Shown here piece by piece: positions 4,966 to 59,105 of a stretch of 64,000 nucleotides of DNA (the stretch's first letter is position 1; the number at the start of each line of letters is the position of its first letter). The notes under the pieces are model-generated. The model did no database searches. It was not told the DNA's origin and saw only the letters and a program-made list of their open reading frames with translations. Source of the DNA: Heterodontus francisci. Taxonomy: Eukaryota. A program made the translations under genes and the position numbers. The DNA lies in contig NC_090416.1 of NCBI RefSeq assembly GCF_036365525.1, forward strand, positions 16,712,945 through 16,776,944, in the 5' to 3' direction.

Positions 4966-5294
4966 TCAGTCGGAACAAGCGGTGGAGCTGATGGTTTTGA
5001 GGAGAGGTGAGCTCAGAGAGCCGTGGTCCACACTGCAGGTATAGCTGGAGCCCTTATTCCAGGCAGTGGCGGGGACTCTCAGGTAACTGCTCAGGCTGTA
5101 GGTTTGATCACTGTCCGTGGACACGGTGCCTGTGGTCACCCCGCTGTCTGTCTCTTTATCATCCACTCTCCAGAGAACCCGCACGAAACCCGGCTTAAAG
5201 CGGCTCACCAGGCAGGACAGAGTAGCCCATCCGGAGTCTATTTCTTCCGAGGAAGGAGGGAGCAGGAGAACTGATGGTTTCCGATCCTCACTAC
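4966..5294 (-). CDS. Ig light chain constant exon, cluster 1 (type I / sigma-cart-like)
   Basis: Acceptor ..cacacag|GT; SEDRKPSVLLLPPSSEE..ATLSCLV..W..YSLSSYL..W..YTCSVDH..STACSD-stop; C1-set Cys/Trp motifs and near-terminal Cys for H-L bond. Confidence 0.96.
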
Positions 5295-6297
5295 CTGTGT
5301 GTGAGAGACAGGGTGGAAGAAAGGAATCTCACTGTTAGTATCAATCATTTTTTCTAAAAGGCACATCCAGAATTAGTAACACATACTATAATTTAAAACA
5401 AACATTTAACTTGACTTCAGACTTAGGTAGAGACAGTAAATAATATAACAGCCTGAGTGTTTCCAGCACTCGATTTCAGATTTCCAGCATCTGCAGGATT
5501 TTGCTTTGATTGGATTAAAATTAAATATTTAGTCCAATCTTAACTCCCTGTCAATTGAGAGCTGGACTTGTACATGGATTCGAGACATTCAGATAAATTA
5601 ATTAACTGAATATTAAATTCAACAGACAATATCGAATTGTTTAAAATTCAGGGGCAGATTAAAATCAAAAGTTTAAAAATTGAGGAAGTTTCACATTTCG
5701 GATAGGCTGTACTGGAGGTCTTATGGAGGTGCTCGGAGGATGTATTGGGAGTAACTCAACCTCCCAGATCCACACTCAGAGTTCGGTGATCACCTCACCA
5801 GGAAAAATTCTTTATTTAAATAAAAAAGGTTTTAAAAGTAATAAAGTTCGGGGCGGTTTCCATTTAGAAAGTAGGTTAGACACTTCACATGAAGGAATGA
5901 CAGCCGGAAGGAGGGGGCTGGGAAGGGAGACGGGGGCTGGGGGGTAGTGGGACCGGGTGCATTAGGAACAGACAAGATGGGGGTGCGCAGAATGAGGCCA
6001 TTCGGTCCATCGAGTCCGTGCCGCAGCCTAATCCACCTCCCAACTTTGGGAGTCTTTTTTTGAGGTGGGGGAGGGGGTGCTAGTGTCAAACTCGACCCCC
6101 TTTGAGTGTGAGTAAAATTCCTGTTTGTAAATCTTCCAGCAACACCCGGGGCAGGCTCGCTATTTATACAACAGTGCAGCGAATAGACGGAGAATTCCAC
6201 ACCTGCACACTGCAGACCTGGCCGAACAGACTCGAGGGGCTGAATGGCCTTTCTCCCCTGTTCATTCTGCATTTTTTTTTGCCAATGGAGTTTTTCC

Positions 6298-6622: not shown

Positions 6623-6659
6623 TCCGTAAACTCAGGGCGGTCCCAGGTCCGAAGGTAAA
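6623..6659 (-). CDS. Ig light chain J segment, cluster 1 (FTFGPGTALSLR)
   Basis: FGxG motif; donor A|GTAAGT; abuts 23-RSS heptamer; splice phase matches C exon. Confidence 0.96.
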
Positions 6660-6698
6660 CACAGTGCAGTGTTTTAATGGGACGGGTCACCTAAAACC
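6660..6698 (+). promoter_or_regulatory. 23-bp-spacer RSS of J1
   Basis: CACAGTG (6660-6666) + 23 nt + CCTAAAACC (6690-6698). Confidence 0.93.
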
Positions 6699-7013
6699 CA
6701 GGCTGGGAAGAAAGAGGGGAAAATATTAATAATCTGTCCTTTATTACATTCCCTTTCACATTCTGCCTTTCACAGGGGCCGGAATGCTGAGAGTCTGGAG
6801 AAAGATTTTCACATATCAGTGAGGAAACCCTGAGAATATCGGTGTTTACCTACCCAGCTAATAGTCCAAATATTGGGGAAAATCCAAATAAACCCATGGA
6901 ATTCCAGTGAGATTATCCACAAGTTACATAAGGAATATTTCTGAAACTCATCCCACAGTCTCAGGCAGGAATATTTCAGTAGCTGTTGGAATTCTGAGTG
7001 GTTCTGTTGGTGC

Positions 7014-7041
7014 AGTTTTTGTATTGCCCTGTCTCACTGTG
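7014..7041 (-). promoter_or_regulatory. 12-bp-spacer RSS of V1
   Basis: Minus strand CACAGTG-AGACAGGGCAAT-ACAAAAACT. Confidence 0.96.
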
Positions 7042-7369
7042 TATGTAGCTGCTGAGCCATCCCAGGCAGCACAGTAATAGACGGCGGAGTCTCCCGGTTC
7101 CAAGCTGCCGATGGTCAGAATGTGACTGTTACTGGAGGTGTCTCTGGAAGGTTGAAAACGGTCCGTGAAGCCGGTGCCTCTGGCTATATAATTATCTGGA
7201 TCATGTCTTATCACCCACACCGGAGCCTCCCCGGGTCTCTGTCGGTACCAGTACATGTAGTAACTGCCCACGTTGCCGTTCTGCATCGCACACTTTAACT
7301 CGGAGGTCTCACCGGCGGAGACTGGGTCTGAAATTGGGGTCTGATTGAGGACAGGAACCGCCAGGACAC
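7042..7369 (-). CDS. Ig light chain V exon, cluster 1
   Basis: Acceptor ttgaag|GT; VPVLNQTP..LKC..WYRQRPG..DRF..LTI..DSAVYYCAAW; open frame up to the heptamer. Confidence 0.97.
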
Positions 7370-7534
7370 CTTCAACACAAAACACAAGAGAGAGAAAAAA
7401 AACACATTCAGTTTATTGGAGCAAAAAAACACACTGATAAATAAACAGGCCGGGCTACCAAATCCCTTTGCTTCCTAATCTAATGGTTTACAAATGAATA
7501 ATTGAGTAACGCTCTGTTAACATAAGTGTCTCAC

Positions 7535-7583
7535 CTGTTAAATGGAGTAGCAGGGTCCCCAGGAGATACATTACTGCAGCCAT
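7535..7583 (-). CDS. Leader (signal peptide) exon, cluster 1: MAAVMYLLGTLLLHLT
   Basis: 49-nt exon, hydrophobic core, phase-1 donor G|GTGAG matches V acceptor. Confidence 0.92.
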
Positions 7584-7692
7584 TCCCTCCGGGGGGGGGG
7601 GGAAAAACCCGTGAAGAATTAGAGAGCAGGGTTTTACTGTAACTCCAGAAAGTGGATCCAGTTACAGTGCCGGACAAGGTGAGACCAGTATC

Positions 7693-7716
7693 TATTATAT
7701 GAACCTGTATGCAAAT
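7693..7716 (-). promoter_or_regulatory. V1 promoter: octamer ATTTGCAT (7709-7716) and TATA-like ATATAATA
   Basis: Perfect octamer in light-chain orientation ~125 bp upstream of the ATG. Confidence 0.88.
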
Positions 7717-9104
7717 ACAGGGAGGGTTGAGAGGAGCAGGGGCGGCGGGGGGGCGGGGGGGGGGGGGGGGGGTGGACCAGACCAGATTTTTTTTTATTGA
7801 GCCTCTATTGGTCCCCAATTAAACATTTCCATGTATTTATTTCCACCGAGTTGAGGGTTAATTCACAATAATTTCTGATTTTAACCCCCCCCCTTCTCAT
7901 GTCAAGAGTGTGAGATTTAAAAGAACAACTGTAGAAATTCCACATTTTATCCCAGATGGGCAAAGACAAAAGCCCTTCAGAATCCAGTGCCTTGAATTCA
8001 TCCAGAACAAGTTTAACCCAGCGATCGTTAAGGATTTGTTTTTTTTTAATATTTGGGTCTGCAATGTGTACTTAAACACATATCTTTATATCCAACACGC
8101 TGGTGTTTGCAACAAAGCAGTTCATTGGAAGGATTGGAATGGAAGAGATTGACTGGACTGCTTCTCTCAGCTGCTCTTTTTTCCTATCCGCCACTGTACA
8201 AGTGCACTGCTTGTCCTGGCGTTTGAGCCGAGTGTAGGGTCAAAACACTCGTTTCTCACTCAGGCCGACGTTCAGAAACAGCCAGAATCAACTCCAATAT
8301 CCGTTTTAATTGGTAATGCAACGAGGAGTGAGATTCTGACCGGGCAAGCTGACTGCTCGGCTAGTTTCTGTGTTGTGTCCGGATCCTGTGTTAAGTCCAG
8401 TTTCAATGAAATGTGTTTTCCTGCTGCAACAGTTCCTGCCCTGACTTTTTTTTGTTGCAACTAAACCACATGTATCGGAACCTCAGTCCCAGGAATACAT
8501 TTGTTTTAACATTCCATTTCAGATGTTTTATGTCAATCACTCGATGCCAAGGGAAAACTTGCAACAAGTAGCTGGTGAGAGGAGTTAGTTTCTTTAAAAT
8601 GAATATTTTCTATCTTTATTTTAAATTCACTTCATGGGATATGGGCATCACTTGGCCCTGCCCGCATTTATTGCCCATCCCTCATTGCCGTTGAGAAGGT
8701 GGTGGTGGAGCCGCCTTCTTGAACTGCTGCAGTGCAGTGGTTTTTTACAACAGAACGTCCATTTCTGAGGGCAGTTAAGAGTCAACCACATTGCCGTGGG
8801 TCTGGAGTCACATGTAGGCCAGACGAAGTGAGGACGGCAGATTTCCTTCCCTAAAAGGACATTTGTGAACCAGATGGTTTTTTGTTAATGAACATTCAAT
8901 GGTAGTTTTATGGTCACCATTACTGAGACTAGGTTTCAATTCCAATTTTTAAAAATTAATTAGTTGAATTTAAATTCCATGGTGGGATTTGAACACGTGT
9001 CTCCAGAGCATTATCCTGGGCCTCTGGATTAGTAATATCTAGTGACATTACTACTACGCCACCTTGTGATGGATCAATATTAATTCTAGAAATGTGATAG
9101 GATT

Positions 9105-9440: not shown

Positions 9441-9703
9441 GTTAGTCTCCTAATACTGACATGTTCAGTCAAGTCAGTGTCGACTAGCTGCCTCCTAGAC
9501 AGAGAATTTGACTCCTCCCCAATTAAAAATCCGTTTCTGATTGGTCTCCACAGCAGAAACAGACCCACCTCCCTCCCCTCCCACCAGGCAGATTCTCTGG
9601 GTCATTTTCAACTAAACCTAACCTGCATTACTATAGAGACCTCAGGATGTCCTAAAGACAGACAAATAAACACCTGTTTTGAAGTCTGGTCATTGTAACA
9701 TCA

Positions 9704-9866
9704 TAACCCAATGCACAATGGAAATAAATATTTGGAAATGATCAATCAGGGACAATTATATTTTTAATAAAGTGTTTTCCCCTGCTCCCCTTGACCCCCT
9801 CCCTGTATTTGCATATTGACTAATACATAGATACTTGTATTCTCCGGGTTCCCGGAGTTACAGTAA
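9704..9866 (+). promoter_or_regulatory. Inverted orphan paralog of the V promoter with perfect octamer (9807-9814)
   Basis: Block homology to the reverse complement of 7634-7860, including identical CCCTCCCTGTATTTGCATA. Confidence 0.8.
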
Positions 9867-9950
9867 TCTTGTTGAAGTGAAAGCACAATTGCTAAATGTG
9901 TGAGAAGCTGAACTCAGCTTTGCTCGTGTAGTTGAATAGAGGGTGCACAT

Positions 9951-10019
9951 ATGTAGTTAAATGGAGTCATCCACGTATGTAGTTAAATGGAGTCATCCAC
10001 GTATGTAGTTAAATGGAGT
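9951..10019 (+). repeat. 26-bp tandem repeat ATGTAGTTAAATGGAGTCATCCACGT (~2.6 units; ~3.6 in unit 2, ~1.6 in units 3 and 4)
   Basis: Read directly from the sequence. Confidence 0.9.
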
Positions 10020-10286
10020 GTGCCAGTGTGCAGTAAAATGGGATTGTGCACATGTCTAATGGAAAGCAGTTCAGCACCTCTAGGTTCATAGAATCTCTCA
10101 CTTTGCACAGCAGATGTCACATGGCTGCAGCTTTGCCCAGGGAGCCTACCCGGTTCACACAGGATAGGCCAGGTGTTAAAGCAAGAGCATTTGGTGCTGC
10201 CTATTGAAGCTTGCACAGCGGTTAAAGGAAAATACAATTAAATCTCACAAGATGGGAATCTTGTAAAGTGTCAGCCATGGCCTCGT

Positions 10287-23198: not shown

Positions 23199-23320
23199 TC
23201 CCTCCGGGGGGGAAAAAAACCCGTGAAGAATTAGAGAGCAGGGTTTTACTGTAATTCCAGAAAGTGGATCCAGTTACAGTGCCGGACAAGGTGAGACCAG
23301 TATCTATTATATGAACCTGT

Positions 23321-23328
23321 ATGCAAAT
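23321..23328 (-). promoter_or_regulatory. V2 promoter octamer ATTTGCAT
   Basis: ATGCAAAT on the + strand upstream of the leader. Confidence 0.88.
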
Positions 23329-24302
23329 ACAGGGAGGGTTGAGAGGAGCAGGGGCGGCGGGGGGGGGGGGGGGGGGGGGTGGTGGACCAGACCAGATTTT
23401 TTTTATTGAGCCTCTATTGGTCCCCAATTAAACATTTCCATGTATTTATTTCCACCGAGTTGAGGGTTAATTCACAATAATTTCTGATTTTAACCCCCCC
23501 TTCTCATGTCATGAGTGTGAGATTTAAAAGAACAACTGTAGAAATTGCACATTTTATCCCAGATGGTCAAAGACAAAAGCCCTTCAGAATCCAGTGCCTT
23601 GAATTCATCCAGAACAAGTTTAACCCAGCGATAGTTAAGGATTTGTTTTTTTTTATATTTGGGTCTGCAATGTGTACTTAAACACATATCTTTATATCCA
23701 ACACGCTGGTGTTTGCAACAAAGCAGTTTCAGGAAGGATTGGAATGGAAGAGATTGACTGGACTGCTTCTCTGAGCTGCTCTTTTTTCCTATCCGCCACT
23801 GTACAAGTGCACTGCTTGTCCTGGCGTTTGAGCCGAGTGTCGGGTCAAAACACTCGTTTCTCACTCAGGCCGACGTTCAGAAACAGCCAGAATCAACTCC
23901 AATATCCGTTTTAATTGGTAATGCAACGAGGAGTGAGATTCTGACCGGGCAAGCTGACTGCTCGGCTAGTCTCTGTGTTGTGTCCGGATCCTGTGTTAAG
24001 TCCAGTTTCAATGAATTGTGTTTTCCTGCTGCAACAGTTCCTGCCCTGACTTTTTTTTGTTGCAACTAAACCACATGTATCGGAACCTCAGTCCCAGGAA
24101 TACATTTGTTTTAACATTCCATTTCAGATGTTTTATGTCAATCACTCGATGCCAAGGGAAAACGTTCAACAAATTGCTCGTGAGAGGAGTTAGTTTCTTT
24201 AAAATGAATATTTTCTATCTTTTTATTTCAAATGCACTTAATTGGATGTGGACATCACTTGGCCCTGCCCGCATTTATTGCCCATCCCTCATTGCCGTTG
24301 AG

Positions 24303-24654
24303 GGCGGCACAGTGGCGCAGTGGTTAGCATTACAGCCTCACAGCTCCAGGGACCCGGGTTCGATTCCGGGTACTGCCTGTGTGGAGTTTGCAAGTTCTCC
24401 CTGTGTCTGCGTGGGTTTTCTCCGGGTGCTCCGGTTTCCTCCCACAAGCCAAAAGACTTGCAGGTTGATAGGTAAATTGGCCATTATAAATTGTCACTAA
24501 TATAGGTAGGTGGTAGGGTAATATAGGGACAGGTGGGGATGTTTGGTGGGAATATGGGATTAGTGTAGGATTAGTATAAATGGGTGGTTGATGTTCGGCA
24601 CAGACTCGGTGGGCCGAAGGGACTGTTTCATTGCTGCATCTCTAATCTAATCTA
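24303..24654 (+). mobile_element. tRNA-derived SINE (HE1-like), ~352 bp
   Basis: A box TGGCGCAGTGG, B box GGTTCGATTCC, CR1-type tail GGGCCGAAGGG..(TCTAA)n; absent at the equivalent site in unit 1. Confidence 0.9.
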
Positions 24655-25648
24655 AAGGTGGTGGTGGAGTCGCCTTCTTGAACTGCTACAGTGCAGTGGT
24701 TTTTGTACAACAGAACTGAGGGCAGTTAAGAGTCAACCACATTGCCGTGGGTCTGGAGTCACATGTCGGCCAGACCAGGTGAGGACGGCAGATTTCCTTC
24801 CCTAAAAGGACATTTGTGAAACAGATGGTTTTTTGTTAATGAACATTCAATTTATGGTCACCATTACTGAGACTAGGTTTCAATTCCAATTTTTCTTTTA
24901 ATTAATTAGTTGAATTTAAATTCCATGGTGGGATTTGAACTCGTGTCTCCAGAGCATTATCCTGGGCCTCTGGATTAGTAATATCTAGTGACATTACTAC
25001 TACGCCACCTTGTGATGGATCAATATTAATTCTAGAAATGTGATAGGATTTGAGCCAGTGAAAGGGAGAGTGTGGGAAAAAGAACAGCAGGGAAGGTATG
25101 TGACACGGGTGGAGGGCAGGAGAGATTAAATGACAAAAAGGGTTTCAAGGTGCAAAGCCAAAGAGAGTGGTAATAAAAGATGTGTCTGGAGGAGGTGTGA
25201 ATGGCAGCTACTGAAAACAAGGTAAAGGAAATAAGAGGTCAACAAGAGAGATAAAATAACAAATCAGCAAAGAAATGGGCAACAAAAATTAGGGCAGGGG
25301 GGTTACAAACTAAAATTGTTGAATTCATTGTTGTGTCCGGAAGGCTGTAGAGTGCCCAGTCGAAAGATGAGGTGCTGTTCCTGGAGTTAGCCTCCGATTA
25401 CTGACATGTTCAGTCAAGTCAGTGTCGACTAGCTGCCCCCTAGACAGAGAATTTGACCCCTCCCCATTAAAAATCCATTTCTGATTGGTCTCCACAGCAG
25501 AAACAGACCCACCTCCCTCCCCTCCCACCAGGCAGATTCTCTGGGTTCCTTTTCAACTAAACCTAACCTGCATTACTATAGAGACCTCAGGATGTCCTAA
25601 AGACAGAAAAATAAACACCTGTTTTGAAGTCTGGTCATTGTAACATCG

Positions 25649-25811
25649 TAACCCAATGCACAATGGAAATAAATATTTGGAAATGTTTACTCAGGGACAA
25701 ATATATTTTTAATAAAGTGTTTTCCCCTGCTCCCCTTGACCCCCTCCCTGTATTTGCATATTGACTAATATATAGATACTAGTATTCTCCGGGTTCCCGG
25801 AGTTACAGTAA
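25649..25811 (+). promoter_or_regulatory. Inverted orphan V-promoter paralog, unit 2 (octamer 25752-25759)
   Basis: As in unit 1. Confidence 0.8.
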
Positions 25812-40130: not shown

Positions 40131-40252
40131 TCCCTCCGGGGGGGAAAAAAACCCGTGAAGAATTAGAGAGCAGGGTTTTACTGTAACTCCAGAAAGTGGA
40201 TCCAGTTACAGTGCCGGACAAGGTGAGACCAGTATCTATTATATGAACCTGT

Positions 40253-40260
40253 ATGCAAAT
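40253..40260 (-). promoter_or_regulatory. V3 promoter octamer
   Basis: ATGCAAAT on the + strand. Confidence 0.88.
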
Positions 40261-41239
40261 ACAGGGAGGGTTGAGAGGAGCAGGGGCGGCGGGGGGGTGG
40301 GGGGGGGGGGTGGGGTGGTGGACCAGACCAGATTTTTTTTATTGAGCCTCTATTGGTCCCCAATTAAACATTTCCATGTATTTATTTCCACCGAGTTGAG
40401 GGTTAATTCACAATAATTTCTGATTTTAACCCCCCCTTCTCATGTCATGAGTGTGAGATTTAAAAGAACAACTGTAGAAATTGCACATTTTATCCCAGAT
40501 GGTCAAAGGCAAAAGCCCTTCAGAATCCAGTGCCTTGAATTCATCCAGAACAAGTTTAACCCAGCGATAGTTAAGGATTTGTTTTTTTTTATATTTGGGT
40601 CTGCAATGTGTACTTAAACACATATCTTTATATCCAACACGCTGGTGTTTGCAACAAAGCAGTTCATTGGAAGGATTGGAATGGAAGAGATTGACTGGAC
40701 TGCTTCTCTGAGCTGCTCTTTTTTCCTATCCGCCACTGTACAAGTGCACTGCTTGTCCTGGCGTTTGAGCCGAGTGTCGGGTCAAAACACTCGTTTCTCA
40801 CTCAGGCCGACGTTCAGAAACAGCCAGAATCAACTCCAATATCCGTTTTAATTGGTAATGCAACGAGGAGTGAGATTATGACCGGGCAAGCTGACTGCTC
40901 GGCTAGTTTCTGTGTTGTGTCCGGATCCTGTGTTAAGTCCAGTTTCAATGAAATGTGTTTTCCTGCTGCAACAGTTCCTGCCCTGACTTTTTTTTGTTGC
41001 AACTAAACCACATGTATCGGAACCTCAGTCCCAGGCATACATTTGTTTTAACATTCCATTTCAGATGTTTTATGTCAATCACTCGATGCCAAGGGAAAAC
41101 GTTCAACAAGTTGCTCGTGAGAGGAGTTAGTTTCTTTAAAATGAATATTTTCTATCTTTTTATTTAAAATTCACTTAATTGGATGTGGACATCACTTGGC
41201 CCTGCCCGCATTTATTGCCCATCCCTCATTGCCGTTGAG

Positions 41240-42585: not shown

Positions 42586-42687
42586 TAATAAAGTGTTTTC
42601 CCCTGCTCCCCTTGACCCCCTCCCTGTATTTGCATATTGACTAATATATAGATACTAGTCTTCTCCGGGTTCCCGGAGTTACAGTAA
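42586..42687 (+). promoter_or_regulatory. Inverted orphan V-promoter paralog, unit 3 (distal block deleted; octamer 42628-42635 kept)
   Basis: ~60-bp deletion relative to the other units, between two TAA motifs. Confidence 0.75.
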
Positions 42688-56486: not shown

Positions 56487-56608
56487 TCCCTCTGGGGGGG
56501 AAAAAAACCCGTGAAGAATTAGAGAGCAGGGTTTTACTGTAACTCCAGAAAGTGGATCCAGTTACAGTGCCGGACAAGGTGAGACCAGTATCTATTATAT
56601 GAACCTGT

Positions 56609-56616
56609 ATGCAAAT
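56609..56616 (-). promoter_or_regulatory. V4 promoter octamer
   Basis: ATGCAAAT on the + strand. Confidence 0.88.
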
Positions 56617-57588
56617 ACAGGGAGGGTTGAGAGGAGCAGGGGCGGCGGGGGGGCGGGGGGGGGGGGGGGGGTGGACCAGATTTTTTTGATTGAGCCTCTT
56701 TTGGTCCCCAATTAAACATTTCCATGTATTTATTTCCACCGAGTTGAGGGTTAATTCACAATAATTTCTGATTTTAACCCCTCCTTCTCATGTCAAGAAT
56801 GTGAGGTTTAAAAGAACAACTGTCGAAATTGCACATTTTATCCCAGATGGACAAAAACAAAAGCCCTTCAGAATCCAGTGCCTTAAATTCATCCAGAACA
56901 AGTTTAACCCAGCGATCGTTAAGGATTTGTTTTTTTTTATATTTGGGTCTGCAATGTGTACTTAAACACATATCTTTATATCCAACACGCTGGTGTTTGC
57001 AACAAAGCAGTTCATTGGAAGGATTGGAATGGAAGAGATTGACTGGACTGCTTCTCTCAGCTGCTCTTTTTTCCTATCCGCCACTGTACAAGTGCACTGC
57101 TTGTCCTGGCGTTTGAGCCGAGTGTGGGGTCAAAACACTCGTTTCTCACTCAGGCCGACGTTCAGAAACAGCCAGAATCAACTCCAATATCCGTTTTAAT
57201 TGGTAATGCAACGAGGAGTGAGATTCTGACCGGGCAAGCTGACTGCTCGGATAGTTTCTGTGTTGTGTCCGGATCCTGTGTTAAGTCCAGTTTCAATGAA
57301 ATGTGTTTTCCTGCTGCAACAGTTCCTGCCCTGACTTTTTTTTTGTTGCAACTAAACCACATGTATCGGAACCCCAGTCCCAGGAATACATTTGTTTTAA
57401 CATTCCATTTCAGATGTTTTATGTCAATCACTCGATGCCAAGGGAAAACTTGCAACAAGTTGCCCGTGAGAGGAGTTAGTTTCTTTAAAATGAATATTTT
57501 CTATCTTTTTATTTAAAATTCACTTAATTGGATGTGGACATCACTTGGCCCTGCCCGCATTTATTGCCCATCCCTCATTGCCGTTGAG

Positions 57589-58942: not shown

Positions 58943-59105
58943 TAACCCAATGCACAATGGAAATAAATATTTGGAAATGTTTAATCAGGGACAAATATAT
59001 TTTTAATAAAGTGTTTTCCCCTGCTCCCCTTGACCCCCTCCCTGTATTTGCATATTGACTAATATATAGATACTAGTCTTCTCCGGGTTCCCGGAGTGAC
59101 AGTAA
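58943..59105 (+). promoter_or_regulatory. Inverted orphan V-promoter paralog, unit 4 (octamer 59046-59053)
   Basis: As in unit 1. Confidence 0.8.

Follow-up and report, generated by a model that had tools for sequence, protein, structure and literature searches.

Why should each gene in an array of shark immunoglobulin light-chain genes carry, about 2 kb upstream of its V promoter, an inverted copy of that promoter with no gene behind it? The question arises from a window of 64,000 nucleotides (the whole stretch of DNA that was analysed) of Heterodontus francisci, in which an initial annotation had pointed out such a “mirror” beside every V gene. For the sigma-2 (type I, NS5, sigma-cart) V-J-C miniclusters that cartilaginous fish possess, a review (PMC5192425) notes that only V segments seem to have promoters; the present locus differs in having a second, V-less promoter copy in every unit. 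No description of such an element was found in the literature; an earlier mention in the 1989 horn-shark papers (Shamblott, Litman) or in PMC2192082 is possible.

The light-chain array

The window consists of four head-to-tail units of ~16 kb each that are mutually 95–97% identical, and each unit is a minus-strand minilocus made of a promoter (P), leader, V, J and C. The promoters of the four units and the exons of unit 1 are located as follows.

7634..7860, minus strand: V promoter P of unit 1, with octamer at 7716-7709 and a poly-C tract that is missing in the mirror
23246..23470, minus strand: P of unit 2, found by profile search
40178..40406, minus strand: P of unit 3, found by profile search
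56534..56754, minus strand: P of unit 4, found by profile search
7535..7583, minus strand: leader exon, ATG at 7583-7581, with a spliced joint in RNA-like contigs
7014..7369, minus strand: sigma-2 V exon with 12-spacer RSS, heptamer from 7041
6624..6698, minus strand: J segment with 23-spacer RSS, seen in V-J junction contigs
4966..5294, minus strand: C exon, matching horn shark light-chain proteins

The pairing of a 12-spacer RSS on V with a 23-spacer RSS on J within the minicluster is that of a sigma-2 IgL cluster. Because the C protein is 99–100% identical to light-chain proteins of the horn shark (Heterodontus francisci) and 69% identical to a skate protein named type I light chain (other isotypes in the genome reach 37–50%), the host gene is, on this comparison, a sigma-2/type I/NS5 light chain, an assignment drawn from percent identities. 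Adjacent paralogues are also listed in bamboo, zebra and whale shark and in rays. Contigs of four runs (X5–X8, one sample, guessed to be RNA) bridge leader and V, V and J with varied junctions, and J and C, and therefore the light-chain genes are rearranged and spliced. All four of these RNA-like runs also have a GT..AG spliced joint inside the V-J spacer (window 6702-6854, minus strand), and a similar joint is found in run X12 of another species; this joint probably belongs to a germline (sterile) transcript that is spliced into J by way of the RSS.

Among 36 units the V exon has a pi of 0.044, against 0.006 for the C exon and 0 for the leader (7045-7370 vs 4966-5295), and its variability is equal to or above that of non-coding DNA. 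Beyond the array end, at a distance of 14 kb, there is a divergent V (56% at the amino acid level; C46:16884849-16885118, L065) that runs directly into a J-like stretch without RSS and has a frameshift near its start; it looks like a germline-joined pseudogene.

An inverted copy of the V promoter

The mirror (M) is a genuine inverted paralogue of the V promoter. Its copies in the four units, and its parts in unit 1, are listed below.

9704..9866, plus strand: M of unit 1, 76% identical to P over 161 columns, no gene behind
25649..25811, plus strand: M of unit 2, found by sequence match and profile search
42586..42687, plus strand: M of unit 3, without block A
58943..59105, plus strand: M of unit 4, the closest to P (78%)
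9704..9764, plus strand: block A, the upstream block of M, which 8/37 units have lost through a 61-bp deletion
9797..9815, plus strand: 19-bp octamer core (octamer 9807-9814), the same as in P and invariant in 37/37 mirrors
9820..9832, plus strand: a stretch that we take to be TATA-like, altered in 7/37 mirrors, unit 1 among them
9854..9866, plus strand: last shared block GGAGTTACAGTAA, where the homology to P stops

P and M are 76–78% identical over 161 columns, and the local alignments of eight pairs score 79–97, whereas 100 dinucleotide shuffles per pair gave a mean of ~28 and a maximum of 46. At all eight octamer places (four in P, four in M) stands the same 19-mer, CCCTCCCTGTATTTGCATA, with the octamers of P on the minus strand at 7716, 23328, 40260 and 56616 and those of M on the plus strand at 9807, 25752, 42628 and 59046; from octamer to octamer the distance is 2.09–2.43 kb. 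The mirror copy as the initial annotation had drawn it, with its blocks, coordinates and distance of ~2 kb, is thereby confirmed, and GGAGTTACAGTAA is present, as it had said, in M of units 1–3 and occurs with one change in unit 4. Its description of the blocks in four units needs some correction: the blocks themselves are as described, but M of unit 3 lacks the entire block A, and in M of unit 1 block A has two changes and the TATA-like box one. The 61-bp deletion of block A is flanked by a 3-bp TAA microhomology. A CCAAT-like word of P is absent from M.

Octamer-TATA promoters are described for Ig light-chain V genes (PMC5241823, PMC2193156), and PMC5241823 supports the role of the octamer in the promoter. 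Like these promoters, as far as they are characterised in those parts of the two papers, M has the octamer ATTTGCAT in light-chain orientation (37/37 mirrors); downstream of it 30/37 mirrors have a TATATA-like word, which is altered in the other seven. Unlike them it points away from the gene, and with neither leader nor V exon downstream it is not counted among the V promoters; if M works at all, it would do so in the manner of an octamer element. Over the ~420 bp behind M no similarity to leader, intron, V, RSS/J or C was detected by shuffled local alignments (1/30 tests at p<0.05, with a value of 0.035), neither tblastn nor an nhmmer profile built from four V genes gave anything at E<3, whether over 12.5 kb of the window or over 15.9 kb at the array end, and a V search of the genome found no plus-strand V inside the array; the earlier claim that no V gene lies behind the mirror is borne out by the shuffled alignments, nhmmer and tblastn alike.

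Directly behind M, at 9925-10040, lies a degenerate 26-bp tandem repeat whose copy number varies, and this region contains, 90 bp behind M, a 12-mer that is found in reversed form in the leader exon. A scrambled remnant of the leader was considered here and rejected: the inversion model (p=0.007) was post hoc and its target is a tandem repeat that is destroyed by shuffling, and plain alignments give p of 0.035–0.08. The contigs of X5–X8 cover 9614-10180 at close to zero (bin depths 0–3.4) and the exons heavily; assembled contigs show neither start sites nor strand, and a stretch that they leave uncovered is not evidence of silence and counts neither for nor against activity.

In the whole genome a DNA search found 37 mirrors, all on the plus strand and all in one array of ~610 kb on contig C46. 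With as many as 3 mismatches allowed, all 66 matches to the block A pattern fall inside this array, as do 70 of the 71 genome matches to the 19-mer core; the remaining one, on contig C38, lies in unrelated sequence with no Ig gene and was rejected as an Ig element. Taken together, exact and mismatch-tolerant searches with the core and block A patterns recover, besides P and M of the array, five promoters in a second cluster and a single chance site in unrelated sequence, and a profile search of selected loci likewise finds P, M and the second-cluster promoters. Eight metagenome matches to the core pattern reach 12 bits or less on the profile and were taken as chance. The match to a dispersed repeat family that, according to the initial annotation, would take away the Ig specificity did not occur: a repeat or transposable element was rejected with 37/37 copies of M in the array, in searches that pass over very common words and do not pick up copies in advanced decay. 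At the left end of the array there is no mirror beyond the C of the outermost unit, and the rightmost unit ends with one; M therefore belongs upstream of V, and the idea that it forms part of the 3′ side of the neighbouring unit was rejected.

The JC distance between P and M is 0.25, compared with a mean of 0.030 between units. This points to one duplication far older than the present diversity of the array, so that M, judged by these distances, is of single origin and ~8 times older than the differences between units. A pedigree mutation rate of 7e-10 per generation is given in the part of PMC10587355 used here, from which it follows only that decay is slow; it provides no dating in years. 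The perfect octamer in all four units, to which the initial annotation had drawn attention, is real, but it is a weak argument, since units that were copied recently and differ by only ~3% lend it no independent support.

A second sigma-2 cluster (C46:15.00-15.20 Mb, L071–L084) has seven V genes and includes genes on both strands, and it is 93–95% identical to the array in V, 93–97% in the V-J spacer and 96–99% in C. Its promoter Q is only ~60–65% like P, with little beyond CCCTCCC-octamer-ATAGA common to both, and the cluster has neither block A in Q nor a mirror. Beside eight of eight other octamer-bearing V promoters checked in this genome, the second sigma-2 cluster included, no inverted copy was found in the 4–6 kb available for each; this check was made outside four loci, namely a C8 stretch without kappa V and three V genes without a proximal octamer. 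Two of the seven V genes in the second cluster have no octamer promoter. Over the promoter and the leader intron's 5′ half, similarity to the array is only ~60–70%, a pattern that suggests gene conversion restricted to the parts that code and recombine. In runs X9, X10 and X12 (organism B) and X13 (organism C; guessed to be DNA, with a low depth of ~2–7 over J-V), J, the V-J spacer and V are covered, and P, the unique spacer and M are uncovered, a pattern that speaks neither for nor against a mirror in these species.

Variation and constraint in the mirror

Variation was counted in 36 of the 37 units, with one unit dropped (L053) that has lost the promoter core, V and J. This unit, at C46:16635308-16645307, has lost its leader as well and has kept C, P block A and the mirror. 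Among the aligned units 18/163 sites vary in M against 7/164 in P (p=0.023), and the sites that M shares with P are not protected (13/127 vary, vs 4/34 of those unshared; p=0.76). Block A has a pi of 0.036 in M and 0.004 in P, and 11 of the 67 sites at 9704-9770 of M vary among units; the block-A pattern is perfect in 36/37 P and in 4/29 M, being deleted in the other eight, and the TATA-like box, intact in 36/36 P, is altered in 7/37 M. M is no longer held like a promoter, since it is more variable than P, its block A is decayed or deleted, and its TATA-like box has been altered.

The octamer core shows no variation at its 19 sites, and 5–10% of background windows of 19 bp are equally invariant (p about 0.03–0.1). 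Under neutral simulations the octamer survives in 11–30%, and a run of at least 19 centred on the octamer arises in 1.4–4.8%; when the run and the invariance of the core are combined by hand (Fisher's method), p is ~0.006–0.03. These values give a modest hint that the octamer core may still be in use. For a wider core of 58 bp there are five varying sites (p about 0.05–0.25), and the whole of M, with 18/163 = 0.11, lies slightly below the 0.13–0.17 of its neighbourhood (p of 0.02–0.23 by binomial test and 0.14–0.23 from empirical windows). Variation among units is patchy, so that background windows are often invariant.

Past constraint can be approached through the distribution of the differences between P and M, which the initial annotation had likened to a phylogenetic footprint. 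This likeness finds modest support in a two-state HMM, which rejects uniform decay (p 0.003–0.035 against uniform simulations and 0.006–0.047 against 148–159 repeat-copy pairs) with fitted states of ~99% and ~55% identity, but two of the three tests of blockiness are not significant: the summed long runs give p 0.20–0.38, and the runs test gives 0.05–0.26 against simulations and 0.11–0.34 against 126 repeat-copy pairs. No alignment between P and M extends into their flanks (1/11 tests at p<0.05). The homologous stretch coincides with the least variable zone of P, with 7/164 varying sites inside and ~18/148 in the flanks, the latter tallied by eye (p=0.012). Together these tests modestly favour long constraint on both copies over even decay.

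Origin of the mirror

M is a real and apparently undescribed feature, and most likely a decaying orphan promoter. We lean, by a little, toward regarding it as a relic: the promoter of a head-to-head, inverted paralogue that has been lost, with M itself by now subject mostly to drift. An ancient sigma-2 cluster would have been duplicated in inverted orientation, giving a second promoter with its own gene, and both promoters would long have been under selection, so that only the functional ~165 bp can still be aligned. The second leader-V(-J-C) would then have been deleted rather than eroded, the remaining unit may have been amplified in tandem with M carried into all 37 units, and M would since have come to drift. 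The homology to P, the single origin, the missing gene and the relaxed block A and TATA-like box are established; the former second gene and its deletion are what we infer. Between the relic and the co-opted element that the initial annotation had offered, the relic fits best because M is more polymorphic than P, with block A deleted in 8/37 and the TATA-like box changed in 7/37 copies, and because the second sigma-2 cluster and the other light-chain loci are without a mirror; co-option fits less well, though the 19-bp core is invariant in 37/37. The promoter Q shows that in this family promoters of old and divergent type are retained even as V-J and C undergo homogenisation, and that genes lie on both strands; such conditions would have allowed a head-to-head paralogue to exist. 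Against a relic stand the lack of any trace of the lost gene and the requirement that the edge of the deletion fall within ~50 bp past the last shared block; the octamer core, too, looks better kept than neutral decay predicts, and the non-significant run sums and runs test weaken the step of long constraint. As a relic, M would be a minor fossil of the duplication of shark light-chain clusters, and it would show how paralogous promoters of ancient origin can survive the genes they served even as coding sequence is homogenised.

Oct factors act through octamers in promoters as well as in enhancers. It is conceivable, if on balance doubtful, that the former promoter has been repurposed, so that the octamer core would now be an orientation-independent enhancer, using Oct1/Oct2 together with OCA-B and acting from upstream on the V promoter at a distance of 2 kb, with the promoter-only parts, block A and the TATA-like box, left free to decay, since their loss would be tolerable for an enhancer. 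The 19-bp core is the longest run shared by P and M, it lies on an element chosen a priori, and neutral probabilities are 0.014–0.048 for its run and 0.05–0.095 for its invariance; moreover the mirror marks the amplified array of 37 units and not the smaller second cluster. Set against this, the octamer by itself outlasts neutral decay in a fair share of the simulations given above, invariant windows are common in a background of patchy variation, the 58-bp core does contain varying sites, and other octamer V promoters manage without such an element. Repurposing of promoters as enhancers is documented in mammals from epigenome and transcriptome data (Carelli et al., PMC6172195). Like the cases in the part of that work considered here, the promoter-derived M could act as an enhancer after loss of its transcript; unlike them, it is a paralogous copy, and the hint that it offers is a weak one from sequence. 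A more specific version, which we put forward with somewhat greater hesitation, is that a V promoter has turned into a dedicated upstream octamer enhancer, one for each of the 37 miniloci, which may have favoured the amplification of the array and high expression. An enhancer at the core would bear on how shark Ig miniloci, many as they are, come to be activated one by one and independently. It would also be a first sequence-defined enhancer candidate for them. The array offers 37 natural variants in this respect, in which the deletion alleles (8/37) are built-in controls for an enhancer.

It is unlikely that M was from the beginning a short inverted copy (~170–200 bp) of the promoter only, placed 2 kb upstream by template switch, at no time provided with a gene or a function, and subject since then to even decay. 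Such an event would agree with the sharp limits of homology on both sides and with the absence of a gene remnant, and uniform decay is consistent with the run-based tests and with a transition/transversion count of 20/15–19, against a ratio of 1.18 in repeat pairs. Uniform decay is nevertheless rejected by the HMM (p 0.003–0.047), and random breakpoints would be unlikely to match both edges of the low-polymorphism zone of P. Least of all do we credit an active divergent promoter that would send non-coding or antisense RNA away from V toward the C of the next unit and so open the chromatin for recombination: the octamer and TATA-like box do keep promoter order and spacing in 30/37 copies, but the frequent losses of block A and of the TATA-like box affect elements that are both kept in P, and the CCAAT-like word is missing.

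Several smaller features surround the two promoters. Between block A and the octamer core of P, at 7743-7790, lies a poly-C/G tract whose length differs in nearly every unit. Short palindromes seen by eye, at 9842-9857 in M and 7638-7668 in P, adjoin the last shared block and sit around the expected start site. A repeat-derived stretch of ~350 bp (24302-24655), which starts near a heptamer-like word, lies between P and M in units 2–4, with none in unit 1 or in either end unit. Just upstream of P, at 7906-8558, there are low-depth contigs in X5 and X6, the runs richest in light-chain sequence; contigs do not give the strand, and these could be upstream antisense RNA, read-through RNA or DNA.
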